IMG/VR virus record: IMGVR_UViG_3300013947_000009
Coordinates: 1-44,729 of that record
Source of the DNA: a virus
Strand: one strand, 5' to 3'
DNA: 44,729 nucleotides
Position numbers and translations under genes: made by a program. Shown one piece after another: positions 1-43,547 of this stretch (positions are counted from its first letter, which is position 1; each line of letters starts with the position of its first letter). The notes under the pieces were generated by a model that searched no databases, was not told the DNA's origin, and was given only the letters and a program-made list of their open reading frames with translations.

Positions 1-35
1 TTTACTTATATATAATAGAGCTTAGCTAAAAGTTA
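1..35. repeat. Terminal direct overlap; 1-35 is identical to 44695-44729, so the contig is circularly closed
   Basis: String comparison of both ends (tttacttatatataatagagcttagctaaaagtta). Confidence 0.95.
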
Positions 36-85
36 AAGTGCTATATTATCTAAGACTAAAAAGTATCTTGTCCATCTTATACCGC
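1..85. repeat. IR copy A, right part. Copy A = 44651-44694 + 1-85 across the junction (129 bp); exact reverse complement of 15462-15590
   Basis: Block-by-block reverse-complement comparison, 0 mismatches. Confidence 0.95.
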
Positions 86-126
86 GAGCCCGCGAAGCAT
101 TACCGCGCAAGACTTCGTTGCGGTTG

Positions 127-171
127 AAGATGAGCTTTTCATCTTGTACTCATCTTGTACTCATCTTATAC
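127..171. promoter_or_regulatory. Candidate recombinase-binding array: dyad aagatga-N5-tcatctt (127-145) overlapping three tandem 11-bp units tcatcttgtac/tcatcttgtac/tcatcttatac (139-171)
   Basis: Exact tandem 11-bp periodicity; mirrored by a related array at 15323-15369. Confidence 0.5.
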
Positions 172-194
172 CATTCTTCACATATAGAATCATT
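163..194. repeat. Inner inverted repeat, 32 bp perfect; reverse complement of 15301-15332. About 45 more bp match at roughly 75-80 percent
   Basis: atcttataccattcttcacatatagaatcatt vs reverse complement of aatgattctatatgtgaagaatggtataagat; ends at the repressor stop codon (195). Confidence 0.9.
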
Positions 195-542
195 TCATTT
201 TAAATTTTGATATTTGGGTATGGATTGAATATCATCTACGTACTCAAATATTTTCTTCATGCCCTTTTCATTTACTCCAAGCGCAAGTTTTAAGTGCTCT
301 TTGAACATTCTTTCATGATATGCCTTGAAACCGTCATCTAATGTTTCCGGAAGAACAAAGACAACCGGAGGGACGTCAAATATATGACACAATTCCCTAA
401 TTGTCTCCAACTTCAGATTTTTGGTAGCTCCACTTTCGTATTTTTGGATTGATGAAGTATTCACCCCCAGCATAATTCCCAATTCTGATTGGGTAAATTT
501 CTTTTCATTACGTAATTTTTTAATAACTTCTCCAGTTTCCAT
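195..542 (-). CDS. XRE-family HTH repressor (CI-like), 115 aa
   Basis: HTH_3 motif KFTQSELGIMLGVNTSSIQKYESG; divergent from the Cro-like gene; GGAGG RBS. Confidence 0.85.
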   Translation of the reverse strand: METGEVIKKLRNEKKFTQSELGIMLGVNTSSIQKYESGATKNLKLETIRELCHIFDVPPVVFVLPETLDDGFKAYHERMFKEHLKLALGVNEKGMKKIFEYVDDIQSIPKYQNLK

Positions 543-642
543 TCTAACGCCTCCTGGTGTATATGTACAATTATAGGATAATATCCGTAATATACAAAGT
601 CAAACGAACGTGTGTTCTCGTAAAGAAATTACGTATTTTATA

Positions 643-671
643 TTGTCAATTGTAAATTATCTTAATATAAT
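643..671 (+). promoter_or_regulatory. Candidate rightward early promoter (TTGTCA-17-TATAAT)
   Basis: Hexamers with 17-nt spacer in the repressor/cro intergenic region; spacer carries ttgtaaattat, repeated at 764-774. Confidence 0.45.
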
Positions 672-753
672 AATTTCGTCATCACGTGCAACGGTTTAAT
701 CGTCATATACATATTTACTAATAAAACGACTAAATCTTTGGCTATTGTGCTAA

Positions 754-782
754 TTTACATTTTTTGTAAATTATAGTAGAAT
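754..782 (+). promoter_or_regulatory. Candidate second rightward promoter (TTTACA-17-TAGAAT) proximal to the Cro-like gene
   Basis: Hexamers with 17-nt spacer; contains the second ttgtaaattat copy. Confidence 0.4.
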
Positions 783-818
783 AGTAACGTAAACCGAACG
801 AAAAGAGGTGATGAGATA

Positions 819-1034
819 TTGACAAACACGAATCTATTAAAATCGAAAATGGTAAGTTGCGGAGATTGTGACTTCGTACATAGTCTTGCAAAGCTTCTCG
901 AAATTTCTCGCAGTACGGCTTCGGTAAAGCTCAACGGGCGTAAGCCATTTTCACAGAAGGAAATCGTCATAATTGCAAAAAAATATGACCTTTCTCCTGA
1001 AGAGATATATCAGATATTTGTAGGAGGTGATTGA
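819..1034 (+). CDS. Cro-like / DUF739-like small HTH regulator, 71 aa, TTG start
   Basis: SLAKLLEISRSTASVKLNGRKPFSQKEI resembles phage Cro/DUF739 proteins; position opposite the repressor. Confidence 0.7.
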   Translation: MTNTNLLKSKMVSCGDCDFVHSLAKLLEISRSTASVKLNGRKPFSQKEIVIIAKKYDLSPEEIYQIFVGGD

Positions 1035-1039
1035 AGGAA

Positions 1040-1210
1040 ATGACTGTCGCAGAATGTGCGAAATTGATGGGAAAATCCCCGCAATTCATTCGAGTAGGAC
1101 TACAGCGTGGCATTCTTCCATTTGGCTACGCTGTAAAAATGAGCAGCAAATGGACATATCATATTTCAGAGCACAAAGTGCTTGATTATTTAGGAGGTAA
1201 ACATGGCTAA
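1040..1210 (+). CDS. Small HTH_17/excisionase-family-like DNA-binding protein, 56 aa (below the ORF-track cutoff)
   Basis: Hand translation MTVAECAKLMGKSPQFIRVGLQRGILPFGYAVK...; ATG follows a GGAGGTGA RBS. Confidence 0.6.
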   Translation: MTVAECAKLMGKSPQFIRVGLQRGILPFGYAVKMSSKWTYHISEHKVLDYLGGKHG

Positions 1211-2006
1211 ATTTAAAGTTGGCGATCAGGTTGTTGCGCAGAAAAATGCACCTTATAGAATCGCAACCAACGGTTGGAAAGGCATAGTAGTTAAGCTTTA
1301 CGGTGGTGGTGAAATCCGTGTTGAGGGTAAGAACGGCTACTTTGGTGTCAATGAAAAATATTTCGATTTGGCAGAAGATACTCGCAAGGTTGTCATTACT
1401 GTCAAAGGTAAAGAAACGATTGCAACTCTTTACGAGAACAATGCAACCGTAAGAAAGGGAATTGCAAAATGTTCTCCGGATGACAAATTCGATTTTGAAA
1501 TCGGCGCGAAACTTGCTTTTGAAAGACTGTTTCCTGAACGTCTTGCTGTTGGTGATTTTGTGAGAATAGTCGGTAATTCAAAACCCAGTCATCGCTTTAA
1601 AATCGGTCAGCTCTGCGAAGTGAGAAAAACGGGGCAGCAATACGCTTATTTGTATGGGCCAGGCGCGTGTAAGGCTATAACTCAGTATGTCGCATGCGAA
1701 GATTTTAAAAAAGTTGATTTTTCATTTGGCGAATTCAAAAAAGAGAAAATGGCAGTTGCCGCCACAAAGGATAGTTTTGATTCTTTCATTGGATTCGCAG
1801 CTAATCATGGCCTCACATTCGGGGATAAGAAATTCAATCCTTTTCTTGACTCAGAGTTTTCTCATGTCGTGTGTCTGCTTCGTCTTGGTTTTATCCCGGT
1901 CAACGGACACGCTGCGGATGAAGATGAGCTTTTCATCACTGTCGAAAGTGGCAAGTTGAAAGTCGGTACGGCTGTTCCTAACGACTTTAAGGTTTTCAAA
2001 TGGTAA
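1203..2006 (+). CDS. Hypothetical early protein, 267 aa, two SH3/KOW-like VGD segments
   Basis: Good RBS, operon context; no family recognised. Confidence 0.7.
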   Translation: MAKFKVGDQVVAQKNAPYRIATNGWKGIVVKLYGGGEIRVEGKNGYFGVNEKYFDLAEDTRKVVITVKGKETIATLYENNATVRKGIAKCSPDDKFDFEIGAKLAFERLFPERLAVGDFVRIVGNSKPSHRFKIGQLCEVRKTGQQYAYLYGPGACKAITQYVACEDFKKVDFSFGEFKKEKMAVAATKDSFDSFIGFAANHGLTFGDKKFNPFLDSEFSHVVCLLRLGFIPVNGHAADEDELFITVESGKLKVGTAVPNDFKVFKW

Positions 2007-3268
2007 CATTATTTCCTCACCAAGTTGAAGGATTGAAACAGACTGAAGGTTTGGAAAGCTGTGCTCTCTATTGGGATATGGGTCTCGGAAAAACATTCGG
2101 CGGGTCCGAAAAAATGATGCAATACGGAAACCGTGTGAATTTGGTAGTTTGCCAAAAATCCAAAGTTGAAGATTGGGTGAATCATTTCAAAGAACATTAT
2201 GATGACGTGATTGTCTACAACGGAACAAAAGCAGAATGTTTGAAACGCTTTTTCGATTATCCATACAACGAAAAACAAGTTTGTATTATCAACTATGACT
2301 TGATTTTTCGTCGTCCTGAGCTCGCCAGTCTGAAAGACTTCACCTTGATGCTCGATGAAAGCTCGTTGATTCAGAACGAGATGAGCAAGAGATCGAAATT
2401 CATTTTGAAAAAGTTGAATCCCAAGAATGTGATTCTTCTTTCAGGCACTCCGACAGGTGGTAAATATGAACGTCTTTGGAGTCAATGCAGACTACTTGGT
2501 TGGAAAATCTCAAAAGATGCATTTTGGAAAACTTATGTTAAATATCACTTTGATACTCGAAACGGTTTTCCTTTAAAGATTATTGACGGTTATAAAAACG
2601 TTGATCGTCTTAAAAGAAAGCTCAGAGAATATGGTGCCGTTTTTATGAAAACTGAGGAAGTATTCGATTTGCCAGCTCAAATTGATACTACGATACAAAT
2701 TTCATCAAGTAAAGAATACCGAAAATTCAGAAGAAATGCAATTGTTTCAGTAAATAATGTTGAGCTTGTTGGTGATACTACCCTCACTAAAATGTTATAC
2801 GAACGGCAGTTGTGCGGTCAATACAATGCCGAGAAATTTCAGGCTTTTCGTGATTTGTTGGAATCTACCGATGATCGATTGATAGTTTTCTATAATTTCA
2901 CGGCCGAAATGAAAGAATTACATAAGATTGCGTTTGAAGAATACGAGCGCCCATGCTCTCTGATTAACGGCAGTATCAAGAACCTTGAGGCTTATGAGAA
3001 TTGTGATGATTCCGTAACTCTCATTCAATATCAGGCCGGCTCGATGGGGTTAAATCTCCAAAAAGCAAACAAAATAATTTACTTCACTCCCCCTTTGTCA
3101 AGTGAATTATTTGAACAGTCTAAAAAGAGGATTCATCGAATCGGCCAAAATAAACCTTGTTTCTATTATTATATCGTTTGTTCAAAATCAGTGGAGGAAA
3201 ATATTTATGCAACACTCAAAATGCGAAAAGATTATACGGAAGTACTTTTCGAAGGTGACAATCATTAG
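2000..3268 (+). CDS. SNF2-family DEAD/H helicase
   Basis: GLGKT, MLDESS (DExx), LLSGTP and HRIGQ motifs. Confidence 0.9.
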   Translation: MVTLFPHQVEGLKQTEGLESCALYWDMGLGKTFGGSEKMMQYGNRVNLVVCQKSKVEDWVNHFKEHYDDVIVYNGTKAECLKRFFDYPYNEKQVCIINYDLIFRRPELASLKDFTLMLDESSLIQNEMSKRSKFILKKLNPKNVILLSGTPTGGKYERLWSQCRLLGWKISKDAFWKTYVKYHFDTRNGFPLKIIDGYKNVDRLKRKLREYGAVFMKTEEVFDLPAQIDTTIQISSSKEYRKFRRNAIVSVNNVELVGDTTLTKMLYERQLCGQYNAEKFQAFRDLLESTDDRLIVFYNFTAEMKELHKIAFEEYERPCSLINGSIKNLEAYENCDDSVTLIQYQAGSMGLNLQKANKIIYFTPPLSSELFEQSKKRIHRIGQNKPCFYYYIVCSKSVEENIYATLKMRKDYTEVLFEGDNH

Positions 3269-3710
3269 TCTGGCGATTTTGCTCGTGATGAATATTTCTC
3301 AAAGCATTCAACTGAAGCATATTGCGGCGGAATTAAAAGAAACCGAAACGGTATCTGAGGTTGAAACTCTTCCGGCTCCCACTGTGACAAGTTTGGGAGA
3401 GTACACAATCACTGCTTATTGTGCATGCGCGAAATGTTGCGGACAATGGGCAGTAGATCGTCCTGATGGAATTGTTAAAGGTGCAGCAGGTACTGAGTTA
3501 GTGAGTGGTTACTCATGTGCGTCCAATAGTTTTGAGTTCGGAACCGAGCTTATAATTGAAGGTTACGGCAATGTTGTTGTTGAAGATCGTACTGCTGATT
3601 GGGTTGACGAACGATATGATGGGAAACTCGTTGATATTTATTTTGCTAACCATGAGAAAGCTCTCAACTTTGGAAAGCGAGTATTGGAGGTGAAAACTTA
3701 TAGCAGCTGA
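3207..3710 (+). CDS. 3D-domain (RlpA/MltA-like) cell-wall-binding or lytic protein with N-terminal membrane anchor
   Basis: YTITAYCACAKCCG 3D-domain signature; hydrophobic VTIISLAILLVMNI; ATG 3207 follows GGAGGA (track start 3102 overlaps the helicase). Confidence 0.75.
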   Translation: MQHSKCEKIIRKYFSKVTIISLAILLVMNISQSIQLKHIAAELKETETVSEVETLPAPTVTSLGEYTITAYCACAKCCGQWAVDRPDGIVKGAAGTELVSGYSCASNSFEFGTELIIEGYGNVVVEDRTADWVDERYDGKLVDIYFANHEKALNFGKRVLEVKTYSS

Positions 3711-3765
3711 AAAAACATTCGAGAACAAAGTCAAAAAATTTCTTGAAGCCAACGAGGCATGGTTT

Positions 3766-4026
3766 GTGAAATTCTTCGCAAACTCATTTACGAAAGCAGG
3801 TATTCCGGATATTTTGACGTGTGTCAACGGTCATTTCGTTGGCATTGAAGTTAAAGCCCAGAATGGTAAACCCTCAGAGCTCCAACTTTACAACGTTAAA
3901 AAAATCCGTGAGGCCGGAGGATTCGCGATCGTGTTATATCCGTCTGGATTCGGAAAATTTAAGGAGTTTATTCTCGATTTAAGAAAAGACAACTACAACA
4001 AAGAAATGGAGGTTATTTTCAAATGA
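3766..4026 (+). CDS. VRR-NUC domain nuclease; start uncertain, frame is open from 3694
   Basis: GIPDIL..GHFVGIEVK..GKPSELQ motif; GTG at 3766, but homologous-looking N-terminus lies upstream without ATG/GTG/TTG. Confidence 0.75.
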   Translation: MKFFANSFTKAGIPDILTCVNGHFVGIEVKAQNGKPSELQLYNVKKIREAGGFAIVLYPSGFGKFKEFILDLRKDNYNKEMEVIFK

Positions 4027-4727
4027 GTAATGTTTACGATGACGTAGCTGAATTACAGTTACAGGTGGCAAATTTGCAAAGCACAGTCGCGCTTCTCAAT
4101 TCGAGACTTGTCAAAGCGGAGGCTTTGGACGGTCAAATGCTGATTGAGGGAACTGACTTGAACACCCTTGAGTGCGGAAGGTATATCATTCCCACTGTCG
4201 CAATTGCGCAAAGTCTTTTGAACGCTCCGACTGGGGCAGGTAGTTACACCGGCATGATCGAAGTTTATTGCGGCGGTAGCGGCGGACAGAAAATTCAGAA
4301 GTATACTATCTGCCGTAAAGACGAAAAGCTCTATTATGAGCGTTGCTATTATAGCAATGCTTGGGGCGATTGGAAGATATTCGATGCGACTGATAGCGGT
4401 TGGGTCAATCTGACGCTCGCAAGTGGTGTTACAGCTTATGCACCGACACAGCTTCCTCAGTGCCGAAAAATCGGCAAAGCGGTTTATATCCGCGGGGCAG
4501 TAAAAAACGTGCTTTCAAATGGAGTTCTTGCAACTCTTCCTGCTGGGTATAGACCAAATACAACAATGGCATTTGCACAAGTAACATCTGTCAGAACTGG
4601 AAACTTTGCAATGTTTGCAAGATATACAATAAATTCTGCTGGTGAAATTAAACTTGAAGCAATTTCAGACGGTGCAGATTATGGTGAAACAAAGTGGTTC
4701 CCCATTTCCACGTGCTTCAGTATTTAA
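4023..4727 (+). CDS. Pyocin-knob-like / receptor-binding-like protein, 234 aa
   Basis: N-terminal coiled coil, GTDLNTL..GRY..N.P knob-like segment, C-terminal DSGW..LP.GYRP domain shared with the next ORF. Confidence 0.55.
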   Translation: MSNVYDDVAELQLQVANLQSTVALLNSRLVKAEALDGQMLIEGTDLNTLECGRYIIPTVAIAQSLLNAPTGAGSYTGMIEVYCGGSGGQKIQKYTICRKDEKLYYERCYYSNAWGDWKIFDATDSGWVNLTLASGVTAYAPTQLPQCRKIGKAVYIRGAVKNVLSNGVLATLPAGYRPNTTMAFAQVTSVRTGNFAMFARYTINSAGEIKLEAISDGADYGETKWFPISTCFSI

Positions 4728-4739
4728 GGAGGTAAGAGC

Positions 4740-5099
4740 ATGAAAGGTGTTTATGATATGACTGCTGATAGCGGTTGGAAAACATTACCCCTCGCAAGTG
4801 GAATTACGCCGAACAGCGATTCAGTAATTCCGCAGTACAGAAAAATCGGCGAAGCCGTTTATTTGCGTGGAGGAATAAAGGGAATTGTCAATGACAATAC
4901 GCTTATCGGAACGCTTCCTGCTGGTTACAGACCCGAAAGAGTCTTTCACTTTATTCAGAATAAGACCGCGAGCGGAAATATGCCAATGATTGCGCGATGG
5001 AAAATTGAAAGCGATGGTGACATTATAATGTCATTTAGCTATGACCAACCTGAAGCGACGCATTGGTTCGCGCTCGATTGCAACTTTTTGGTGGACTGA
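4740..5099 (+). CDS. Paralogue of the C-terminal domain of 4023-4727, 119 aa
   Basis: DSGWKTLPLASG..PQYRKIGEAVYLRG..LPAGYRP aligns with residues ~124-234 of the preceding protein. Confidence 0.6.
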   Translation: MKGVYDMTADSGWKTLPLASGITPNSDSVIPQYRKIGEAVYLRGGIKGIVNDNTLIGTLPAGYRPERVFHFIQNKTASGNMPMIARWKIESDGDIIMSFSYDQPEATHWFALDCNFLVD

Positions 5100-5101
5100 T
5101 T

Positions 5102-6745
5102 ATGCAGGTAAGTTATTCGAGAATCTCAACCTATGAGAAATGCCCGTATCAGTTTAAACTCCGTTACAAAGATGGGCTTGAGACAGTATTCAATTGTGAT
5201 CCTCAAAACGCTCTCATTCTCGGTCATGCGCTGCATACGGGAATTGAGAAAAACGTTGACGAGGCAATCAAAGAATATTATGCTGCCTATCCGGTGATTA
5301 AAGACGCTCACATAACTGAGGCTATGAAGTTGGAATATTTGATTCCGAAAGTTAAAAAACTTTTACCCAAGGGTCAGCATGAAGTAAAGATTGAGACTGA
5401 TGATTTTGTTGGATATATCGATTTGTTGGCTCCGATGGGTTATATGGCTAAAAACTCGATTTACAATTCATACGGCGAAGACGTTGACGTTTACGATCTT
5501 TACGACTTCAAGTATTCCAATAACGTTGGCAGCTATATGGAATCGGCTCAGCTTCATCTTTACAAATACTTCTTTGAGCTCAAAAATCCGGGTAAACGCA
5601 TAAGAAATCTATACTTTGTGTTTATTCCGAAATGCCAACTCAAACAGAAGTATAAGAACAAAACAAATTCGAGAGACGAAACGCTCTATGAATTTCGCAG
5701 GCGCTGCCTTGAAGATTTGGAATCAAAAGAAATCCGTATTGAACAAATCCAATATGACCCGAACAAGGTCATTGAATATCTCATCTCAACTAAACATTGC
5801 GTTGAGGCTACGGACTACCCTAAAAATACTACGCGCCTTTGTGATTGGTGCGAATATCAACTTTATTGTCAGAAAGGAATTGATTATATGAATCTCCCTG
5901 AAAATAAAAGAAGGGAAAAAACTCTCAACACCAAGCCCGACATGTGGATTTATGCCGACTCATACGTCGGAAAATCAACATTTGTAGACCAGATTGACAA
6001 TCTGATTTTTGCAAACACCGATGGTAATATCGAAAACATCACAAGCCCGGTTGTTCGCATTAAGGACGAGATCATCAAAAATGGCCGTATGACCGACAAA
6101 AAATTCGCATGGGAAGTATTCCTTGAATTTGTCGATGAGCTCGAAAAGAAAGAAAATTCATTCGAGGTTGTTGCTCTTGACCTGATGGAAGACCTCTATG
6201 AGCATTGTCGCTTGTATATCTATGACAAGCTCGGAATTGAGCATGAGCAGGACGCTGGATTCGGCAAGGGTTGGGATATGGTCCGCACTGAATTCCTTTC
6301 GACTATTAAGCGCCTGAAAAACCTCGGCTATCGAATTATTTACATTTCAAAAGAACTCAAGACCGAAATCAATCTCAAGAATGGCGCGAAAATTACAAGC
6401 TATGCACCGAACCTTCCTGATAAGGTTGCCAACGTTCTCGCCGGCACGGTTACTCTGACGCTCAGAGCATTCATGAACAACCGCGGAAGATTCCTTCAGC
6501 TTGCTAAGGAAGAAAATATTTTTGGAGGTGGGCGATTTGACTTTGTTCATGACACCTGCCCGCTCGATATCAACGCTTTTGTTGAAGAGCTCAAACTCGC
6601 TCAGGGCAGTGAAGAAGCTCCTAAAAGAAAGCCGGTTGAAGAAACGCCGGTAACAACTGAACCAGCAACAACTGAGTCATCAGATGATGAGGCGCCGGTA
6701 GCAGAAGAAGCACCGAAGCGTAGAACGAGAAAGAAAAGAGACTAA
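5102..6745 (+). CDS. Fusion of PD-(D/E)XK (Cas4/RecB-like) nuclease with AAA_24 (Sak4-like) ATPase, plus acidic/basic tail
   Basis: YSRISTYEKCPYQFKLRY plus C-terminal Cys cluster CDWCEYQLYC; then WIYADSYVGKST P-loop; ATG 5102 overlaps the preceding stop. Confidence 0.75.
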   Translation: MQVSYSRISTYEKCPYQFKLRYKDGLETVFNCDPQNALILGHALHTGIEKNVDEAIKEYYAAYPVIKDAHITEAMKLEYLIPKVKKLLPKGQHEVKIETDDFVGYIDLLAPMGYMAKNSIYNSYGEDVDVYDLYDFKYSNNVGSYMESAQLHLYKYFFELKNPGKRIRNLYFVFIPKCQLKQKYKNKTNSRDETLYEFRRRCLEDLESKEIRIEQIQYDPNKVIEYLISTKHCVEATDYPKNTTRLCDWCEYQLYCQKGIDYMNLPENKRREKTLNTKPDMWIYADSYVGKSTFVDQIDNLIFANTDGNIENITSPVVRIKDEIIKNGRMTDKKFAWEVFLEFVDELEKKENSFEVVALDLMEDLYEHCRLYIYDKLGIEHEQDAGFGKGWDMVRTEFLSTIKRLKNLGYRIIYISKELKTEINLKNGAKITSYAPNLPDKVANVLAGTVTLTLRAFMNNRGRFLQLAKEENIFGGGRFDFVHDTCPLDINAFVEELKLAQGSEEAPKRKPVEETPVTTEPATTESSDDEAPVAEEAPKRRTRKKRD

Positions 6746-6763
6746 TTAAGGAGGAACCCATAC

Positions 6764-7204
6764 ATGGATTTTTCAAAATTTGATAAAAAGGTAGACCTTG
6801 AAGGTCTTAAAAAAGATATTGAGGATAGCGCGAGCAGCGACTTCAAAGAGGTTCCTCTTGGTAGCTATGAGGTAGCTATTACTAAACTTGAACTTGGTGA
6901 ATCCAAAAAGAAAGACCCGATGGTAAAGGTTTGGTTCAAGATCGTTTCCGAGGGTGAATACAAAGGCAGTCTGATCTTTATGAATCAGGTTATCACGAAA
7001 GGCTTCCAGATTCATATTGTTGACGAATTTCTCAGAAGTCTCGGAACCGACATCGACATTCACTTTGATTCCTATTCTCAGTATGCCGATTTGCTGCTTG
7101 ATGTTTTTGAAGCTATTGATGGCAATTTCGAATTTGGCCTCAAATACGGCGAAAACAAAGGTTTCAACACGTTTAAGATCACAGACGTTTTTGAGCTTGA
7201 CTAA
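6764..7204 (+). CDS. DUF669-like protein (putative SSB-like partner of AAA_24)
   Basis: Size, sequence character and conserved position after AAA_24. Confidence 0.6.
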   Translation: MDFSKFDKKVDLEGLKKDIEDSASSDFKEVPLGSYEVAITKLELGESKKKDPMVKVWFKIVSEGEYKGSLIFMNQVITKGFQIHIVDEFLRSLGTDIDIHFDSYSQYADLLLDVFEAIDGNFEFGLKYGENKGFNTFKITDVFELD

Positions 7205-7266
7205 TCTTAAAGAATTCCTTGCGGGGTATTTATTACCCCGCGGGGTATTTCCGAAGGAGGAATTAG

Positions 7267-8031: not shown

Positions 8032-9719
8032 ATTTTTACGATTTTGAGGTGTTTAAGGAAAATTGGCTGGTTGTCATAATCAATCCGGCTGAACGGTCAG
8101 AAACAATAATTGTCGATGATTCTGAAAAGCTGAAAGCCTATTATGAATCTCACAAAAATGAAATTTGGATCGGGTACAATAATCGTCGTTATGACCAGTA
8201 CATTATGAAAGCTATTCTTTGCGGATTTGATCCCAAGAAAGTCTCCGACTATTTAATTGTTGAAAATAAGGGAGGTTGGCAATATAGCAGTATGATGAAT
8301 AAGATTCCGATGATTAACTTTGACGTTATGCTTAAAAACGACGGAGGTCTTAAATCTCTTGAGGGATTCATGGGGAATGATATTCGAGAGACGAGCGTTC
8401 CATTTGATATTGACAGGAAGTTAACGGCCGAAGAAATTGCTGAAACTATCAAATATTGTAAGCACGACGTTGAGCAGACTATCGAAGTGTTTCTCAACCG
8501 AAAAGCAGAGTTTGACGCTGCCCTGGGATTGGTTAAGATTTTTAATCTTCCCATGAAGTTTATGGGAAAAACCGGCGCTCAAAGAGTTGCTCATATTTTG
8601 GGCGGAAAAGGTATTCATTATCACGATGAATTCGATTTTGAAATCGTTCCGACTCTGAAATTGAGTAAATATAAGTATATAGCTGATTGGTACCGAAACC
8701 CAGCTAATCGTGATTATAATAAAAAGCAAAAAGTCACGGTTGCAGGCGTCGAACACATTTTCGCTTGGGGAGGAATCCATGGGGCTATTCCAAAGTATTG
8801 TGATGAGGGAATTTTCTTGATGGCGGACGTTACAGCGTATTATCCCAGCTTACAGCTTCGATATAAATTCGGTTATCGCAATATGGTAAATCCCGAAAAT
8901 TTCGAGAAGATTCACGGCGAAAATTTAAGGCTTAAGAAAATTGATAAAAAAGCCAGACTTCCGTATAAAATTGCCGATAACGCAATTTCGGGCCAGCTCA
9001 AAGATAAGTATTCTCCGTTGTATGATCCGCGAGACAACAACGCAATCACTGTTAACGGACAGCTTTTGCTGCTTGATTTAATTGAAAAACTTGAGTCTCA
9101 CATTGAAAGACTGGTTCAATCTAATACCGATGGTATTCTCATCAAACTACGGTCAATTGATGACTATGAAAAAATTGACGATATCGTATGGGAATGGGAA
9201 CAACGAACGGGCATGCGAATGGGCTTTGACCTTTACACAAAAGTTTTTCAAAAGGACGTTAACAATTATTTAATTGTTGCTGAAGACGGAAGCACAAAAA
9301 CCAAGGGTGCCTATACTAAATCTTTGGGACCGCTCGATTTTGATTTGCCAATCATTAATAAAGCTATGGTTGAGTACATGAAAAATGGTACTCCTATAGA
9401 AAGAACGATTTTGGAATGTAATGAGCTTAAAATGTTCCAGAAAATCATAAAGTTGAGCGGTAAATATAAGTGCGTTTGGCACAACGGAAAATCATACACC
9501 GAAAAATGCTTCAGAGTCTTCGCAAGCCGATCTTCTTCAGATTCTTATATTGGCAAGCAAAAAAGCAACGGCGCAACGATTGAAAAGTTTGCAAACACCC
9601 CTGAACATTGTTTTGTTGATAATTCTGACATTAACGGAAAAAGTGTTCCCGATGAATTAGACAAACGATGGTATATCAATTTAACAAAAGAACGACTTGA
9701 ACAATATGGAGTGATTTAG
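8007..9719 (+). CDS. Family-B-like DNA polymerase with 3'-5' exonuclease domain; alternative TTG start at 8025
   Basis: Exo motifs FYDFEVF, GYNNRRYD, YCKHDV; pol motifs DVTAYYPSL, KIADNAISGQ, NTDGILI. Confidence 0.7.
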   Translation: MGGKIKLLNFYDFEVFKENWLVVIINPAERSETIIVDDSEKLKAYYESHKNEIWIGYNNRRYDQYIMKAILCGFDPKKVSDYLIVENKGGWQYSSMMNKIPMINFDVMLKNDGGLKSLEGFMGNDIRETSVPFDIDRKLTAEEIAETIKYCKHDVEQTIEVFLNRKAEFDAALGLVKIFNLPMKFMGKTGAQRVAHILGGKGIHYHDEFDFEIVPTLKLSKYKYIADWYRNPANRDYNKKQKVTVAGVEHIFAWGGIHGAIPKYCDEGIFLMADVTAYYPSLQLRYKFGYRNMVNPENFEKIHGENLRLKKIDKKARLPYKIADNAISGQLKDKYSPLYDPRDNNAITVNGQLLLLDLIEKLESHIERLVQSNTDGILIKLRSIDDYEKIDDIVWEWEQRTGMRMGFDLYTKVFQKDVNNYLIVAEDGSTKTKGAYTKSLGPLDFDLPIINKAMVEYMKNGTPIERTILECNELKMFQKIIKLSGKYKCVWHNGKSYTEKCFRVFASRSSSDSYIGKQKSNGATIEKFANTPEHCFVDNSDINGKSVPDELDKRWYINLTKERLEQYGVI

Positions 9720-9720
9720 A

Positions 9721-9927
9721 ATGACACATATGATTTACGAAACTCCGGGTACAAGGTACGGCCATTGGGAAGTATTGAGCTTCCACGAGGTAGATTCTCA
9801 CGGCGATGCTCGTTGGTGGTGTCGATGCTCAATATGCGGCGGAATTTATTCTGTAGCAGGATTCCGATTGCGTAACGGTAAATCAACGAAATGCTGGCCT
9901 TGCCATTTGCGGGAACCGAAGAGGTGA
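9721..9927 (+). CDS. Small zinc-ribbon protein, 68 aa
   Basis: CRCSICG...CWPC cysteine pairs. Confidence 0.6.
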   Translation: MTHMIYETPGTRYGHWEVLSFHEVDSHGDARWWCRCSICGGIYSVAGFRLRNGKSTKCWPCHLREPKR

Positions 9928-9932
9928 CGTGA

Positions 9933-11810
9933 TTGGAATTATTTCGCGGATACGTACCAACCAAGGATAAAAAATGCTTGATGAAATTCAAGAATTCGTC
10001 AGATTTGAAAAGTTATCGAGAAGTTAAAAATTTGCCTGAGTTTGCTGGAATACTCGCAGCCGACACGATTTTGATTGATGTTGATGATTTTCATCAATCA
10101 GAAATAATGATGGATATAGTTGAGGAGCTTCAACTGAGATGCCGAGTATATGCAACATCTCGAGGAAAGCATTTTCTTTTCAAAAATGACGGAGTAGAGA
10201 CAAACAAAATTCGCACGAAATTAGCTTGCGGATTGGAAGCTGATATTAAACTCGGAACTCGAAATAGTTACAGCGTGCTGAAATACGCCGGGAAAGAAAG
10301 AGAAATCATTTACGACATTTTCGAAGATGAAGATTATGAGCCTGTCCCTAAGTTTTTCACGCCTATTCAAACAAACATTGATTTTTTGAACATGGAGCAG
10401 GGAGATGGAAGAAATCAGTCATTATTCAATTATATCTTGACTCTTCAAAGCAATGACTTTTCAGTTGATGAGGCAAGACAGACGTTAAAGATCATCAATG
10501 ACCATGTGCTACCTGACCCGTTATCGGAGGAAGAATTGAGCACTCTATCACGCGATGACGCATTCAAAAAGCCGGTTTTCTTCAATAAAGGAAAGTTTCT
10601 TTTTGACAAGTTTGCAATCTTCCTCAAAAACAATAACCATATTGTCAGAATTAACGGGCAGCTACATATATATCGCGATGGTATTTACGTTGAGGGTCAA
10701 CCAGAAATTGAAGCAGCGATGATTGAGCATATTCCGAACCTAAACCGCTCGAAGCGAACAGAGATAACGAGTTATTTGGACATTCTCATTCGAAAGAATA
10801 TAAAAACCGATAATGCGAATCTCATAGCTTTCAGGAACGGCGTCTATGACCTTGAAACCGGTGAGCTGAGAGAATTCAGTCCGGATATTATAATTACGAA
10901 CAAAATCGATCATGATTATAACCCCGAGGCTTATAGCGAATTGGCCGACAAGACGCTTGATAAACTCGCTTGCGGAGACGCAGACGTCAGAGCCTTGTTG
11001 GAAGAAGCAATCGGTTATTGTTTCTATCGAAGAAATGAGTTAAGAAAATCTTTCATACTCACCGGCGATAAGAAAAACGGTAAATCGACATATCTGGCTG
11101 TTTTGAAAGAGCTGCTTGGAGACGTTAACACTGCGTCACTTGATTTGAATGAGTTGGGCGACAGGTTTTCGAGTGCCTCACTGTTCGGAAAGCTCGCAAA
11201 TATCGGCGACGATATTGCAGATGACTTTATTTCCAACCCGGCAATATTCAAAAAGATTGTTTCCGGCGATTGGATAAAAGGTGAGAACAAAGGTCAGAAA
11301 GAGTTTTTCTTCAAGCCTTATTGTAAGCTACTTTTCTCAGCCAACAATATTCCGAGAATTAAGGACAAATCGGGAGCAGTTCTTGACCGTTTGGTTATCG
11401 TTCCTTTTGACGCTCAATTCTCGAAAGATGACCCTGATTTTGATCCCTATATCAAGTATAAATTAATTCAGGAAGATTCATTGCAATACTTGATTTTGTT
11501 GGGAATTAAAGGGTTGAAGCGGGTACTCGATAACCGAGAATTTACTCAATCGGCCAAAGTACAAAGGTCCATTGATGAATACAAGGAAACGAACAATCCG
11601 ATTCTATTATTCTTCAAAGAAGACGTGCAAATTATCAACGAGCCAACGAATGAGGTATATCGCAAATATACGGAATTTTGTTTGGCAAACAGCTTCACGC
11701 CAATGAGCAACATCGAGTTTTCTAAACAAATCAAAAAGCACTATGGCGTTGAAATCAAAAGTAAAAGTATCAACGGTAAAAAATACCGCATATTTGTTGA
11801 AAGGAGTTAG
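9933..11810 (+). CDS. Bifunctional prim-pol / D5_N / P4-family primase-helicase
   Basis: ILIDVDD and SRGKH prim-pol motifs; Walker A GDKKNGKST; Walker B NIGDD; TTG start (ATG alternative at 9981). Confidence 0.85.
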   Translation: MELFRGYVPTKDKKCLMKFKNSSDLKSYREVKNLPEFAGILAADTILIDVDDFHQSEIMMDIVEELQLRCRVYATSRGKHFLFKNDGVETNKIRTKLACGLEADIKLGTRNSYSVLKYAGKEREIIYDIFEDEDYEPVPKFFTPIQTNIDFLNMEQGDGRNQSLFNYILTLQSNDFSVDEARQTLKIINDHVLPDPLSEEELSTLSRDDAFKKPVFFNKGKFLFDKFAIFLKNNNHIVRINGQLHIYRDGIYVEGQPEIEAAMIEHIPNLNRSKRTEITSYLDILIRKNIKTDNANLIAFRNGVYDLETGELREFSPDIIITNKIDHDYNPEAYSELADKTLDKLACGDADVRALLEEAIGYCFYRRNELRKSFILTGDKKNGKSTYLAVLKELLGDVNTASLDLNELGDRFSSASLFGKLANIGDDIADDFISNPAIFKKIVSGDWIKGENKGQKEFFFKPYCKLLFSANNIPRIKDKSGAVLDRLVIVPFDAQFSKDDPDFDPYIKYKLIQEDSLQYLILLGIKGLKRVLDNREFTQSAKVQRSIDEYKETNNPILLFFKEDVQIINEPTNEVYRKYTEFCLANSFTPMSNIEFSKQIKKHYGVEIKSKSINGKKYRIFVERS

Positions 11811-11812
11811 TT

Positions 11813-12139
11813 ATGACAAGTGAACGATTTAACGAGATTGTGAGAGAGCAGGTTGACACGTGCATGAGCTTGCTCGGAGTTAAAGGCGATGAATACGACA
11901 CAAATTCAAATGACCGTCTTCATGCTTTTAAAGCGGCAGCAGAAATTCAGTACGTCACACCTAAACAAGCTCTCGCGGGCATGATGGCCAAGCATACCAT
12001 ATCTATTTATGACATGCTTGCGAATGCCGATGAAAAACCTCCCGTTGAGAAATGGGTCGAAAAAATTTCAGACAGCATTAACTACTTGCTGTTACTGAGA
12101 GCAATTATTCAAGAGGAGATTGACAATAATGAAGCGTGA
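11813..12139 (+). CDS. DUF1599/MazG-like all-alpha protein (nucleotide-metabolism associated)
   Basis: GVKGDEYD...RLHAFKAAAEI...KH pattern; family call tentative. Confidence 0.45.
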   Translation: MTSERFNEIVREQVDTCMSLLGVKGDEYDTNSNDRLHAFKAAAEIQYVTPKQALAGMMAKHTISIYDMLANADEKPPVEKWVEKISDSINYLLLLRAIIQEEIDNNEA

Positions 12140-12266
12140 AGTAGTTACAGTTGTTAAGTATACCGAAGATTATATTCTTCTGAGTGACGGCAAAGAAATC
12201 CGCCCTCCTCATGGGCAAAAGTTTGATTTGGACGTCATTAAAAAAATATGGGAGGTGACGGATTGA
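12129..12266 (+). CDS. Small hypothetical protein, 45 aa
   Basis: Hand translation MKREVVTVVKYTEDYILLSDGKEIRPPHGQKFDLDVIKKIWEVTD; stop abuts the next ATG. Confidence 0.45.
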   Translation: MKREVVTVVKYTEDYILLSDGKEIRPPHGQKFDLDVIKKIWEVTD

Positions 12267-13058
12267 ATGCAATATAACAACATGGATGATATTTATCGTA
12301 TTATTTGTCGGCAGTTGCTTTACGCCCCGAAAGTTGGCGAAACTCGTGAAATAAACGGCTATTCATTTACCCTCACGAATTTGGACAACAACGTCGTTAA
12401 TATTCGCAATATTTCCAAATCGTATATTTGTGGAGAATTGCTTTGGTATGTGTTGGGCCGAAATGACGTGGGATTCATCAGCAAGTTTGCTAAACTCTGG
12501 GAAAGAATCAGCGACGATGGAAAAACATCGAACTCAGCTTATGGAGATATTATCCTCAAGCGCCACGGTTTTAACCAAGTTGATACCATTATTAGGCTTT
12601 TGAAGAAAGACCCGTTGAGTCGTCGAGCGGTAATCAATTTCAATGTGCCGAATCCAAACGTGATTAATACAAAAGATGAGATTTGTACCGTTGCTTTGCA
12701 ATTCCTCATTCGAAATGGAAAACTCAATGCGTATGGCTTGATGCGCAGCAACGATGTTTGGTTTGGTCTTCCGTATGATGTGATATTTTTCACAGAGTTG
12801 CAAAAGTACATCGCTCGCAAATTGGGAGTAGATTGTGGAACATATACACATACAGCAAATAGCTTGCATGTATATGAGCGGAATCTCCCTGATTTGGAAA
12901 AGGTTATATTTGCGAAGTCTGAGACTAAAATCTCCGTGGATTTTCAAAAATTCTGGATGTGCCGATATGGACTTGAAAGCGTCGTTGAAACATCGGATGA
13001 TCCGAGAAAGGAGCTTGTCGAAACGTGCGAACGCTTGAATATATTGAAAACGATTTGA
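12267..13058 (+). CDS. Thymidylate-synthase-family enzyme; predicted pyrimidine C5 hydroxymethylase/methylase acting on dCMP
   Basis: ThyA motifs ELLWY, DPLSRR, catalytic C140 (DEICT), RSND, GLPYD (Asp171 where TS has Asn), HVYE. Confidence 0.8.
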   Translation: MQYNNMDDIYRIICRQLLYAPKVGETREINGYSFTLTNLDNNVVNIRNISKSYICGELLWYVLGRNDVGFISKFAKLWERISDDGKTSNSAYGDIILKRHGFNQVDTIIRLLKKDPLSRRAVINFNVPNPNVINTKDEICTVALQFLIRNGKLNAYGLMRSNDVWFGLPYDVIFFTELQKYIARKLGVDCGTYTHTANSLHVYERNLPDLEKVIFAKSETKISVDFQKFWMCRYGLESVVETSDDPRKELVETCERLNILKTI

Positions 13059-13261
13059 CCTCGTGCATTTTCTCGTCTATAAATCAACGATGCGCTATTT
13101 TGACAGCGACTAAATGCCCTAAAAATTGCGCTTTTAAGAAGTCATTGACTGAATATCTTGACGGAATGCTCCATGCCGAAGAGATTCTTCGAGAAAAAGG
13201 ATTGAAGCGCGTAATGGCGTCTATAGACAACAACGAAATTGTAACTACTAAAAAGGAGTAA
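13025..13261 (+). CDS. Cys-rich small hypothetical protein, 78 aa, GTG start
   Basis: ORF fills the gap between the ThyA-like gene and the methyltransferase; start uncertain. Confidence 0.45.
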   Translation: MRTLEYIENDLTSCIFSSINQRCAILTATKCPKNCAFKKSLTEYLDGMLHAEEILREKGLKRVMASIDNNEIVTTKKE

Positions 13262-13266
13262 TTATT

Positions 13267-14019
13267 ATGGCAAAAGAAATTTACAACAAAACCCAACTCA
13301 CACCGCAGCAAGAATTTGAAAGACACATTTACCACCGCGATCAGTTTGCGCACTATCTGAGATGGTCGCATGTTCTGAAAGTCGCAAAAATCGGTCAAAA
13401 GATTCTTGACTTCGGTTGCGGATCAGGCGAAATGCTTGAGCTATTCTACCGCAATAAATTCAGACCTAAGAGATATTTGGGCCTGGACATTCGCCAGCAA
13501 ACAATCAAAGAAAACCAGGAGAAATTCGCAAAGCTCGATTTTGCTGAATTCAGACAGGCAGACCTCTGTCAGAGTGAGCTTGACCTTGGAGAAGACTTTG
13601 ACATTATTACTTGTTTTGAAGTGATGGAGCATATCGGCCATGCCAATGCAGACAAATTCCTTGAAAATATCTGGTATCACTGCGGCAAAGATACAAGGGT
13701 ATATCTGAGCACGCCGAACTATGATCCAAAAGTAGGAGCAGCAAAAAATCACCTTCTGGGGCCTGATAAAGAAATCGGCGAATGGGATCATTTCGAGCTT
13801 CAGGAAAAATTGAGCGAATATTTCGACATTGAGGCGAAATACGGCACGTTTGCAAGCATGAAAGACTACAAGGAAGAAATCGTCGGAGATTGGAGACAGC
13901 AGATGTTCGATGCTCTGAAAGAATATTATGACACGAACCTCATCTCGGTAATTATGGCGCCTCTCATTAAACCAGAACATGCTCGCAACTGCTTGTGGGT
14001 ACTGCGCGCAAAGGAGTGA
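13267..14019 (+). CDS. Class I SAM-dependent methyltransferase
   Basis: ILDFGCGSGEM motif I, DIITCFEVMEHI. Confidence 0.8.
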   Translation: MAKEIYNKTQLTPQQEFERHIYHRDQFAHYLRWSHVLKVAKIGQKILDFGCGSGEMLELFYRNKFRPKRYLGLDIRQQTIKENQEKFAKLDFAEFRQADLCQSELDLGEDFDIITCFEVMEHIGHANADKFLENIWYHCGKDTRVYLSTPNYDPKVGAAKNHLLGPDKEIGEWDHFELQEKLSEYFDIEAKYGTFASMKDYKEEIVGDWRQQMFDALKEYYDTNLISVIMAPLIKPEHARNCLWVLRAKE

Positions 14020-14024
14020 GTTTT

Positions 14025-14354
14025 ATGCACATAAAAATGCACAATGGCAAGGCTTATGGCGTGCAATTCACAGCAAGAGAGCGCGAAGCAATGCATAAGG
14101 AAGTCAACAGGCAGCTCGTTGAACAAATGCGCGAGCTCGGAACTGACGTTGATGCCCTGATTCTGTGGGTGCTACACGTTGAGTTTGGATTCGGCAAACA
14201 GAGGTTGAAAAGATTTTTTGACGTGTTCACAAAAGAATATGAATACATGGGCGAATATTACGACATGCCCAAGGATGTTCCTTGGATTTGCCGTACAAAG
14301 CTGAAAGAAATCGGCGTTGACATTGAACAATGGAATAAGGAGGCAAAACAATGA
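14025..14354 (+). CDS. Hypothetical protein, 109 aa
   Basis: ATG 14025 preceded by AAGGAG; track start 13995 overlaps the previous gene. Confidence 0.6.
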   Translation: MHIKMHNGKAYGVQFTAREREAMHKEVNRQLVEQMRELGTDVDALILWVLHVEFGFGKQRLKRFFDVFTKEYEYMGEYYDMPKDVPWICRTKLKEIGVDIEQWNKEAKQ

Positions 14355-14596
14355 TTTGCATGAAGAAAAAAATTAAGGTTGAGGACATTATTATTCCCGG
14401 CATTTTTGCCGGGAGCACCCCTAAACCTACGAAGCTGATCGAAAAGACAGCCGAGTATTTGGAATCAGGCAAAATCGCGTCGGTGTATGTTGACCGAAAT
14501 AAAGTGCTGGTTGACGGCTATTGCAGCTATTTGATTCTGAAAACGCTCGGCGTAAAGAAAATTAAATGTGTACAGATAAAGGAGAAAGATAGATGA
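14351..14596 (+). CDS. Small degenerate ParB/Srx-like N-terminal domain protein
   Basis: VLVDGYCSYLILKTLGVKKI resembles the ParB DGHHR region but lacks those residues. Confidence 0.4.
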   Translation: MICMKKKIKVEDIIIPGIFAGSTPKPTKLIEKTAEYLESGKIASVYVDRNKVLVDGYCSYLILKTLGVKKIKCVQIKEKDR

Positions 14597-14889
14597 TTCT
14601 TACATTATGCGGAAGTACGAAATTTAAGGATGATTTTATACGAGTGAATAAAGAGCTCACACTTGCTGGAAATGTCGTCCTCTCGGTCGGATGTTTTGGT
14701 CATAGTGGTGATTTTATCACCGACGAACAGAAGCTCATGCTCGATGCAATTCATAAGCGAAAAATTGACTTGTCAGAAGGCATATATGTCATCAACAAGG
14801 GCGGTTATATTGGTTCTTCGACGCGCGAGGAAATCAAATACGCAAGGAGCCATGGAAAATCAATCTTTTATATGGAGGAGCAAAAATGA
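14593..14889 (+). CDS. Nucleoside 2-deoxyribosyltransferase-superfamily-like small protein
   Basis: MILTLCGS..., HKRKIDLSEGIYVIN..GYIGSSTREEIKYA pattern. Confidence 0.45.
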   Translation: MILTLCGSTKFKDDFIRVNKELTLAGNVVLSVGCFGHSGDFITDEQKLMLDAIHKRKIDLSEGIYVINKGGYIGSSTREEIKYARSHGKSIFYMEEQK

Positions 14890-15305
14890 AGGTAAAAGTC
14901 ATCGATTTTGGTTATGAAAAGCTGCCGTTCAGAGCACATGAAAACGATGCCGGAGCAGATGTCTACGCGCACTTGCCCAACAGACGAGTCGGTGTTTGGC
15001 CTCATGAAACTGTGAAAATTCCGCTCGGTTTGGGCCTCTGTTTGCCTGATGGATATATGGCTTGCGTATTCCCCAGGAGCGGTTTGGCGAGCAAGGGACT
15101 TGTCTGTGAGCTTCCCCCTATCGATTCGGGTTACCGCGGAGAGATTCACGCGATTGTTACGAATTGCAGTAATGTCAAGCAATTTGTCAATGATGGAGAC
15201 AGAATTGGGCAACTGGTAATCACTCCGGTAGTAGTTGCTGACTTCATCACGGAAGACATTAAGGTGAGAGGCAACAGTGGTTTTGGCTCAACTGGGCTAA
15301 AATGA
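14886..15305 (+). CDS. dut: Trimeric dUTPase
   Basis: All five motifs: AGADVYA, PRSGLA, IDSGYRGEI, GDRIGQLV, RGNSGFGSTG. Confidence 0.92.
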   Translation: MKVKVIDFGYEKLPFRAHENDAGADVYAHLPNRRVGVWPHETVKIPLGLGLCLPDGYMACVFPRSGLASKGLVCELPPIDSGYRGEIHAIVTNCSNVKQFVNDGDRIGQLVITPVVVADFITEDIKVRGNSGFGSTGLK

Positions 15306-15332
15306 TTCTATATGTGAAGAATGGTATAAGAT
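15301..15332. repeat. Inner inverted repeat, partner of 163-194
   Basis: Exact reverse complement; overlaps the dUTPase stop codon. Confidence 0.9.
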
Positions 15333-15369
15333 CGGTATAAGATCGGTATAAGATGAATTCATTCATCTT
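15323..15369. promoter_or_regulatory. Candidate recombinase-binding array: three tandem 11-bp units ggtataagat(c/g) (15323-15355) overlapping dyad aagatga-attcat-tcatctt (15350-15369)
   Basis: Exact tandem repeats with 11-bp phasing; ggtataag/cttatacc also recurs at 15464-15471, 15568-15575 and in IR copy A. Confidence 0.5.
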
Positions 15370-15394
15370 CAACTCCTGTTTCGATAAGAATAGT

Positions 15395-15460
15395 TAGCGT
15401 GATGATTAAATAATGATTGCTGACGATATTATTTTTAATCGTCACGCTACTTTTCAATTT
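15395..15460 (+). terminator. Long hairpin (16-bp stem, one G-U pair, 23-nt loop) followed by a T-rich tract; putative early-operon terminator
   Basis: tagcgtgatgattaaa ... tttaatcgtcacgcta then cttttcaatttt. Confidence 0.5.
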
Positions 15461-15461
15461 T

Positions 15462-15590
15462 GCGGTATAAGATGGACAAGATACTTTTTAGTCTTAGATA
15501 ATATAGCACTTTAACTTTTAGCTAAGCTCTATTATATATAAGTAAAATAGTTAAGTTATACTATACTCTTATACCATTCTTCTGAAAGAG
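15462..15590. repeat. IR copy B (129 bp), exact reverse complement of copy A; ends 8 nt before the integrase ATG
   Basis: Block-by-block comparison, 0 mismatches. Confidence 0.95.
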
Positions 15591-15598
15591 GAGATTAT

Positions 15599-16603: not shown

Positions 16604-16629
16604 AAAAGAGCCTCGCGGCTCTTTTTTTG
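16602..16629. terminator. Bidirectional rho-independent terminator
   Basis: aaaaaagagcc-tcgc-ggctcttttttt between convergent genes. Confidence 0.85.
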
Positions 16630-16881
16630 TTATCTACACCAATCTTTATTTATCATTTCTTCATCTGCAATTCTTTTAATAGACGGACATTCATTACTCT
16701 TCAAATTTGCCCATACTTGGTATGGGTTTTCTGCCTGCCATACTACTTTTCCATCGTACATGCTGCACATTCTAATAAGAATACCATGTTGCTCTAAAAA
16801 TGTTTTCAAGATGAAGAACTCTTCACTACTTGATTTTATTAGATTTGTTTTCTGTCCGTATTCTTCTGTTATATGTTCCAT
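16630..16881 (-). CDS. Hypothetical protein, 83 aa
   Basis: ORF ending at the bidirectional terminator. Confidence 0.55.
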   Translation of the reverse strand: MEHITEEYGQKTNLIKSSSEEFFILKTFLEQHGILIRMCSMYDGKVVWQAENPYQVWANLKSNECPSIKRIADEEMINKDWCR

Positions 16882-16945
16882 ATTATTTCCTTACTTTCTG
16901 CCGTCGTAACCTCCGTGGCGGGATAATGTTTTATTTATCTTCTAA

Positions 16946-17104: not shown

Positions 17105-17150
17105 AGTTTTTAATCTCCTTTGCTTTTTTGTTTAGCTTTATTATAGTTAT

Positions 17151-17906: not shown

Positions 17907-17954
17907 GTTTATATCTCCTTCAAAAATCATATTCGGTGGTTAACCGTTGATTTA

Positions 17955-43530: not shown

Positions 43531-43547
43531 TTGTGTTTAATACGGGG

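Follow-up and report, generated by a model that had tools for sequence, protein, structure and literature searches.

We analysed a 44,729-bp stretch of viral DNA (the window), positions 1 to 44,729 of the IMG/VR record IMGVR_UViG_3300013947_000009, in which a perfect 129-bp inverted repeat (IR) brackets the early/replication module of a temperate phage. The window is written with a 35-bp end overlap (44695-44729 is identical to 1-35), and the true circle measures 44,694 bp. At one end of the module lies the gene for a cI-like helix-turn-helix (HTH) repressor (195-542, reverse strand; HTH_3, E 2.8e-11), which faces, across the first copy of the repeat, the gene for an ArpU-like late regulator that resembles region 4 of sigma-70 (sigma-r4-like; 44246-44635, reverse strand; sequence search). 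At the other end the last gene of the module, encoding a dUTPase (14886-15305, forward strand; sequence search), is followed by the second copy and then by int, encoding a tyrosine integrase (Int) with an N-terminal arm-DNA-binding domain (Arm-DNA-bind_4; 15599-16603, forward strand; domain search). Copy B of the repeat (15462-15590, forward strand) ends 8 bp before the ATG of int. Copy A, on the reverse strand, consists of an inner 85 bp at the left end of the contig (1-85), which continues from 44694 across the junction, and an outer 44 bp (44651-44694), which ends 15 bp before the start codon of the ArpU-like gene. Repeat comparison showed that 1-85 is the exact reverse complement of 15462-15546 and 44651-44729 that of 15512-15590; joined over the end overlap, the two copies match at 129 of 129 positions. 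Farther in, 163-194 and 15301-15332 match at 32/32 positions, within a wider imperfect match of 52/58 (138-195 against 15300-15357). A first-pass annotation, made from the letters alone, had described the 129-bp repeat, the 32-bp inner match and the four gene borders next to them; on recomputation both repeats and all these coordinates were confirmed.

The position of the contig ends bears on how the circle can be read. Of copy A, the contig holds 85 bp at its start and 79 bp at its end, and nowhere within the window is this copy crossed. Since both ends lie inside this copy, the repressor-IR-ArpU junction of the window rests solely on the 35-bp overlap, which itself falls inside the IR and is the sole link closing the circle. 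The dUTPase-IR-int junction is the only one of the window's two IR junctions that is internal to the contig.

The two intergenic regions share one architecture. From the inside outward, each comprises the stop codon of the upstream gene, three motif copies in an 11-bp phase together with a small hairpin, a stretch of about 105 bp not shared by the two regions, the 129-bp cassette and the ribosome-binding site of the downstream gene. In the cassette, a 9-10-bp motif occurs twice directly and twice inverted around an 84-bp core of 79% A+T; copy B carries GGTATAAGAT and GGACAAGAT in direct orientation, the core at 15483-15566, and then TCTTATACC and ATTCTTC inverted. All exact GGTATAAGA sites of the window (8/8) are found within these two regions. 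The inner arm on the repressor side (138-195, reverse strand) abuts the repressor stop codon, holds GAAGAATGGTATAAGA and carries, at 141-172 and in 11-bp phase, two copies of GTACAAGAT and one of GGTATAAGAT. Its counterpart (15300-15357, forward strand) overlaps the dUTPase stop codon and carries GGTATAAGAT in tandem at 15323, 15334 and 15345. Each region is bounded by inverted copies, of about 16-26 bp, of GAAGAATGGTATAAGA. Hairpin analysis revealed a terminator-like structure between the dUTPase gene and the IR, made of a long hairpin (15395-15449) and the T-rich tract CTTTTCAATTTT (15395-15461 in all, forward strand). The repressor side has no clear terminator; there a variable GC-rich hairpin region (86-137, reverse strand), unrelated in sequence to 15358-15461, separates the motif triplet from copy A. 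A sigma-70 promoter scan predicted one site, TGGACA-18-GATAAT, inside the IR, and an Rfam search of the cassette found no significant family.

We looked up public assemblies by the exact sequences of the integrase, the ArpU-like protein, the repressor, the dUTPase and the products of two neighbouring genes, and typed each repeat copy by its flanks with a script; the evidence on orientation is thus that of assembled contigs. The repeat is real and invariant, and no artefact of the window's contig. Both copies are contiguous and identical at 129/129 positions in contig NODE_97 of assembly ERZ808272, nine more contigs from other assemblies hold single copies at 129/129, and the same figure holds for every contig that contains the repeat whole, across different assemblers and k-mer lengths (k). 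Two strains have an IR without a single difference, although 51 of the 862 bp immediately before it differ between them. Exact 40-48-mers of the IR were not found in IMG/VR, the GTDB representative genomes or the JGI metagenomes, and a megablast search of 1-16700 against GenBank phages gave no match. The sample accessions brought up nothing in the literature.

The first-pass annotation had pointed out that flipping the 15.4-kb segment between the repeats yields the canonical temperate gene order. Such a form exists and is the common one, both in assemblies of this phage and among its relatives. The junction repressor-IR-int occurs in seven assemblies (ERZ808272, ERZ27287399, ERZ808282, ERZ26858485, ERZ27287474, ERZ28614896 and ERZ26858442) and dUTPase-IR-ArpU in two (ERZ808272 and ERZ28613895), so that canonical junctions, flipped relative to the window, are present in 8 independent assemblies altogether. 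Outside the window, the window-like junction repressor-IR-ArpU was seen in one contig, ERZ28614471 scaffold_7459 (12.9 kb), reported from 2 samples and 100% identical in sequence to canonical contigs of its strain, and the junction dUTPase-IR-int was not found in the assemblies looked up. Two of the canonical contigs were built by MEGAHIT at k=141, one of them at full length (44,459 bp); with a k larger than 129, both must rest on real reads that cross the whole repeat. No contig assembled at a k above the length of the repeat shows the window-like junction. Many contigs break exactly k-1 bases into the IR (30, 54, 76 and 118 bases for k=31, 55, 77 and 119), indicating that the repeat collapses in assembly graphs. 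Contig L012 (ERZ27287474 k141_723207) starts unlike all these broken contigs, its position 1 corresponding to window position 44651, the outer boundary base of copy A; in the same assembly a repressor-IR-int contig breaks off 266 bp into int.

The same sequence was assembled in both orientations, the opposite orientations always coming from different assemblies. NODE_97 (44,716 bp, 67x coverage, SPAdes) is 100.000% identical to the window, with no mismatch, over all stretches retrieved (11,142 + 9,948 + 9,985 + 4,261 bp), and its early segment is inverted relative to the window, with repressor-IR-int and dUTPase-IR-ArpU junctions. In a second strain, about 97% identical to the first, the canonical contig L005 and the non-canonical contig L006 are 100% identical over their shared 4,351 + 1,484 bp, and the repressor side of L006 is 100% identical to both k141 contigs that run on into int. 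Identical sequence in opposite orientation in two strains demonstrates that orientation is not a fixed trait of a lineage; either the assembler sets it, or inversion outpaces the build-up of point mutations. The full-length k141 contig and the 67x SPAdes contig cross both repeats in a single orientation, which excludes a balanced mixture of isomers.

The relatives of the phage place the canonical order at the base of the group. IMG/VR relatives share 85-88% protein identity with Int, 85-95% with the repressor and 50-74% with the DNA polymerase. All six that carry int (6/6) have int and the repressor gene on the reverse strand, followed by SNF2, polymerase, primase-helicase, dUTPase and the ArpU-like gene on the forward strand, which is the canonical order. 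This order is also that of the isolate Paenibacillus phage LincolnB, a distant relative with a shared replication module (polymerase 51% identical); the cassette is absent from LincolnB, and different arrays lie beside its primase gene. From these comparisons the canonical order is ancestral and normal.

Both cassettes occur in the relatives at the same two sites and in the same layout, with AGTCAAGAT replacing GGTATAAGAT and with cores of 78-87 bp and 83-90% A+T. They are 62-67% identical to the cassette of the window. The two cassettes within one relative's genome are 77-83% identical, with longest exact runs of 15-27 bp, and this divergence makes the relatives' assemblies unambiguous. The same cassette is on average 84-86% identical between genomes; as this exceeds the likeness within a genome, the relatives show no concerted evolution. 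Since all relatives have both cassettes in place, the inverted arrangement is ancestral and was not built for inversion. The perfect identity in the window's lineage would then reflect, judging from these comparisons, a gene-conversion event followed by strong conservation, in line with the homogenisation that the first-pass annotation had suspected. Relatives that lack int also have the motif arrays. In one of them (L035) a cassette stands free, with six direct copies, an A+T core and six inverted copies, and the SNF2 gene has a promoter of its own after it. In more distant relatives, arrays of AACAGCGGC and AACAGTGG were considered as cis-acting arrays and rejected, as they are coding pentapeptide repeats; a protein with long runs of NSGNW or NSGNR is encoded there just upstream of the SNF2 gene (L045 2784-3785; L046 1-520).

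We favour, at a probability of roughly 0.6, an explanation in which the two repeats are homogenised paralogous cis-acting cassettes of origin type, the canonical order is the natural one, the order of the window is most likely an assembler's path and Int is uninvolved. The two 129-bp copies would be paralogous copies of one conserved cassette whose motif copies bind a protein, with the early/replication module lying between the two and with int and the ArpU-like gene each having a cassette directly upstream; in this lineage gene conversion would have brought the two copies to identity. The predominant natural order would have int and the repressor gene reading one way and, reading the other way, cro, the replication genes, dUTPase, arpU and the genes from packaging to lysis. 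In an assembly graph the collapsed repeat would join two unique segments (15.1 kb and 29 kb) through one node, and both circular walks would be valid unless read pairs decide. A short-read assembler that walked through this node and took the wrong exit would produce the order of the window; at most, that order would represent a minority recombinant formed across the repeats by host RecA or by the phage's own recombination proteins (Exo-Sak4). The window starts and ends inside the repeat and SPAdes resolved an identical genome the opposite way at high coverage, which makes a path choice by the assembler the likeliest source. The orientation of the 15.4-kb segment in the window is therefore not reliable.

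The repeat is probably functional as a cis-acting element, and by analogy its likeliest role is that of an array of initiator-binding sites, as at an origin, for a primase-helicase resembling PriRep of the Staphylococcus aureus pathogenicity islands (SaPIs). The phage encodes a primase-helicase of the D5/P4-alpha/SaPI PriRep type (9933-11810, forward strand; D5_N, DUF5906 and Pox_D5), residues 244-604 of which align to SaPI5 PriRep (PDB 7OLA, E 1e-42), the C-terminal region included. SaPI origins are described as having an A+T-rich centre between iterons that number 6-12, at least two per side and in opposite directions (PMC9371898), and the iterons are bound by the C-terminal winged helix of Rep (PMC9371898). 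The cassette likewise has at least two opposed motif copies on each side of an A+T-rich centre, and by its sequence the primase-helicase is a self-loading enzyme of SF3 type with a C-terminal DNA-binding domain, as at SaPI/P4-type origins. Going by these sequence features, the primase-helicase is the best lead as a candidate binder of the motif arrays. Two other candidates fared less well. The ArpU-like protein as a motif-specific binder is unsupported, its predicted recognition helix being nearly identical in both motif classes, and phages of the other motif class have a repressor with 94-95% identity.

Several points weigh against an origin. SaPI origins lie directly downstream of rep, whereas the cassettes lie 3.6 kb downstream of the primase-helicase gene or beyond the repressor gene, and no motif array was found at 11810-12267, after that gene. 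The winged-helix region shows no specific divergence between the motif classes (identity is 65% between the window and relatives, against 68% within the relatives), and the assignment is made by analogy. The cassette could instead serve both int and arpU as a factor-dependent promoter or leader. Its direction is fixed relative to the downstream gene and it abuts the ribosome-binding site of that gene, which fits a promoter or leader, and the sigma-70-like site predicted within the IR points the same way. As that site is not conserved in relatives, however, the promoter claim is inferential. On balance we rank the origin-type site first, by analogy and at slightly better than even odds, with the promoter or leader as a tentative second.

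The strongest competitor of the assembler's path is a real flip-flop isomerisation, in which homologous recombination by RecA or by Exo-Sak4/DUF669 inverts the 15.4-kb module in replicating DNA, both isomers exist in natural populations and the window is a genuine isomer; we regard this as possible but doubtful. A perfect 129-bp repeat suffices for RecA- or Sak4-type recombination, although it is far shorter than the repeats of known flip-flop cases, and the phage encodes a recombination module of its own: a PD-(D/E)XK exonuclease fused to a Sak4-like annealing protein (5063-6745, forward strand) and a DUF669 protein (6764-7204, forward strand), both identified by domain search and together spanning 5063-7204. 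The claim of the first-pass annotation that the circle contains no recombinase other than Int thus stands for site-specific enzymes, none of which besides Int appears in the Pfam lists of the phage genes, and fails for homologous recombination. Each of two different strains was assembled in both orientations, its sequence being otherwise identical, and the non-canonical order, present in the window and in the ERZ28614471 scaffold from 2 samples, recurs more often than a single accident predicts; these observations, which tell against a mere path error, have a precedent in cyanophages, where IR-flanked segments coexist as two isomers. The two orders are nevertheless not of comparable abundance, canonical junctions standing at 8 assemblies against 1 plus the window. 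Full-length contigs straight through both repeats would be unexpected for a balanced mixture, and the absence of the window-like junction from contigs with a k above the repeat length argues the same way. Moreover, with no clear terminator on the repressor side, the window-like form lets repressor transcripts run toward the late regulator, which would probably be deleterious in a lysogen.

A further proposal, which we consider improbable, is that the twin cassettes are two active origins kept identical and that Exo-Sak4 recombination between them truly inverts the replication module. If true, it would explain the flipped order in two strains, and during bidirectional replication it would act in the manner of the 2-micron Futcher mechanism, needing no site-specific recombinase and turning theta forms into double rolling circles for the terminase.

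Programmed inversion by Int at the IR copies, which would switch the operons that feed int and the late activator, was the main suggestion of the first-pass annotation and is now very unlikely. Int is the only site-specific recombinase, its gene starts 8 bp outside copy B, and the motif arrays (3 + 2 + 2 copies) superficially resemble the layout of arm-type sites. A recombinase gene is thus linked to the repeat, as in inversion systems run by tyrosine recombinases (Flp/FRT, Cre/lox, FimB/E, Rci shufflon), but inverted core sites are not conserved with the orthologous recombinase: relatives with 85-88% identical Int lack the long IR and always have the canonical order, and the N-terminal arm-binding domain of Int is essentially identical in relatives that have AGTCAAGAT instead of GGTATAAGAT. 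The arrays are present in relatives without Int as well. The terminator-like hairpin between the dUTPase gene and the IR weakens the idea that inversion rewires which operon feeds int or the late regulator. The motif arrays were rejected as arm sites of Int, given the conservation of its N-terminus across motif classes and the fact that the IR shares no sequence beyond chance with a conserved A+T-rich non-coding block at 17209-17405. This block lies directly downstream of int in relatives and is, from its position and conservation, likelier than the IR to be the phage attachment site (attP). In the window, two small open reading frames (ORFs) on the reverse strand (83 and 52 amino acids, 16630-17104) lie between int and the block.

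No relative of Int, and no copy of the phage, was found in the GTDB representatives (185,579 genomes), and among the assemblies looked up no contig carrying the phage exceeds 50 kb or has bacterial flanks; hence no prophage context, host or attB was obtained. No integrated copy was seen despite the int and repressor genes. A tRNA scan gave no clue to an attachment site, and distant relatives of Int are found in Butyrivibrio, Ruminococcus gnavus and Fusobacterium phages.

As unlikely as programmed inversion by Int is amplification of the yeast 2-micron or Futcher type, which the first-pass annotation had offered as an alternative and in which inversion at the IRs during bidirectional replication, by Int or by homologous recombination, would give double rolling circles and, from them, concatemers for the terminase. 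The circle is indeed split by IRs, the phage has its own recombination module and replication would start at the repeats if the cassettes were origins. However, relatives with the same replication and packaging genes and a conserved arm-binding Int lack any such recombinogenic repeat (their longest exact runs being 15-27 bp), so that the mechanism cannot be required; there is no sign of abundant flipped molecules, and involvement of Int is disfavoured. Least likely of all is that the repeat is functionless, a miniature inverted-repeat transposable element (MITE) recently inserted at two sites or a duplication from assembly collapse, for although the bounding GAAGAATGGTATAAGA copies and the abrupt end of identity at both borders would suit an element, the relatives' diverged cassettes at exactly the same two positions show these positions to be ancient, both copies are intact in independent assemblies from different assemblers and k values, and neither a third copy nor a transposase is present.

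Other repeats and polymorphisms were noted in the genome. The DNA polymerase gene of the replication module lies at 8007-9719 (forward strand); its product is the one that is 51% identical to that of phage LincolnB. A second repeat family, (TA)TTATACAAC-N4-GTTGTA-N3-TGTACA, has six copies in the window, at 17147-17197, 17951-18017, 19029-19092, 19148-19184 (reverse strand), 20747-20797 and 44182-44245. Five of them precede small genes of the accessory region that separates int from the lysis genes, and the sixth closely follows the ArpU-like gene; a similar element is found in the promoter region of the SNF2 gene of L035 (6265-6295). Judging by their placement, the TTATACAAC elements resemble a family of shared operators or promoters. 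A perfect 93-bp direct repeat (21687-21779 and 21837-21929, spaced by 150 bp) lies inside a tail or receptor-binding-like gene with Flg_new repeats (21564-22748), and contig L002 (ERZ27300217), otherwise 100% identical, has one 150-bp unit fewer (344 against 394 amino acids), indicating a copy-number polymorphism. Several families of 33-, 38- and 77-bp tandem repeats occupy 40070-40600 in the gene at 39972-41180; NODE_97 ends within them, at about window position 40469, and differs from the window's circle by 22 bp in length. About 330 bp at 43532-43863, between a holin-like gene and the gene after the ArpU-like gene, are present in strain 1 (the window, L004 and L007) and not in strain 2 (L005, L006, L008 and L010). 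Repeats with a 120-nt period (27751-28230; three overlapping 240-nt copies, 64-71% identical) lie inside a gene of 1074 amino acids (27224-30448), presumably encoding the tape-measure protein.

Among the known systems closest to this arrangement are the cyanophages, in which segments of about 30 kb between IRs of 400-700 nt form two coexisting isomers, as demonstrated by polymerase chain reaction, Sanger sequencing and read mapping (bioRxiv 10.64898/2026.02.14.705889). As in the Anabaena cyanophages A-1(L), N-1 and A-Lf14, a large block of a tailed-phage genome lies between IRs in either orientation across assemblies, with no dedicated invertase identified; here, by contrast, the IR has 129 bp, the flipped form is rare among the assemblies, which are the evidence for it, and the phage, a temperate one, has a clear canonical order. 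In plastid IR flip-flop and herpesvirus segments, too, a unit is split by identical IRs that gene conversion keeps identical, and the orientation of the single-copy segments is beyond short-read assemblers unless spanning information is available. Those repeats measure kilobases and their isomers are near-equimolar, whereas here the k=141 and SPAdes contigs have one orientation and any isomer would be minor. The yeast 2-micron circle is likewise divided by IRs with a tyrosine recombinase gene beside one repeat. Flp, however, is a simple recombinase that acts on a 34-bp Flp recognition target (FRT) core inside 599-bp IRs; Int of this phage is arm-binding, its attP-like site lies elsewhere and orthologous phages lack the repeat. 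Like SaPI origins (PMC9371898), the cassettes have motifs that flank an A+T-rich centre of about 80 bp, at least two opposed per side, in a genome that encodes a PriRep homologue; SaPIs have a single origin immediately downstream of rep with 5-6-nt iterons, whereas the two cassettes here, as putative origins, are inverted, lie at the borders of the replication module, carry 9-10-bp motifs and abut the ribosome-binding sites of int and arpU. The G segment of phage Mu and the C segment of P1 are also bounded by inverted repeats, but these are 3-4-kb tail-fibre switches run by serine invertases (Gin and Cin) with an enhancer and Fis, whereas here the segment is the whole early module and no serine recombinase is present.

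The novelty of these findings is modest, at best a weakly supported case of the known IR-mediated genome isomers together with a new candidate pair of origin-like cassettes. For genome catalogues they carry a warning: a 129-bp IR suffices for a short-read phage genome recorded as complete and circular to have a third of its length flipped, and this genome is present in public data in either orientation. Should rare flipping prove real, a temperate gut phage would join the recently described genome isomers of cyanophages. The lasting biology is the conserved pair of motif-array cassettes that brackets the replication module in phages of human-gut Firmicutes, and if these cassettes are origins for a SaPI-PriRep-like initiator, they would provide a testable origin architecture for this uncultured phage group.

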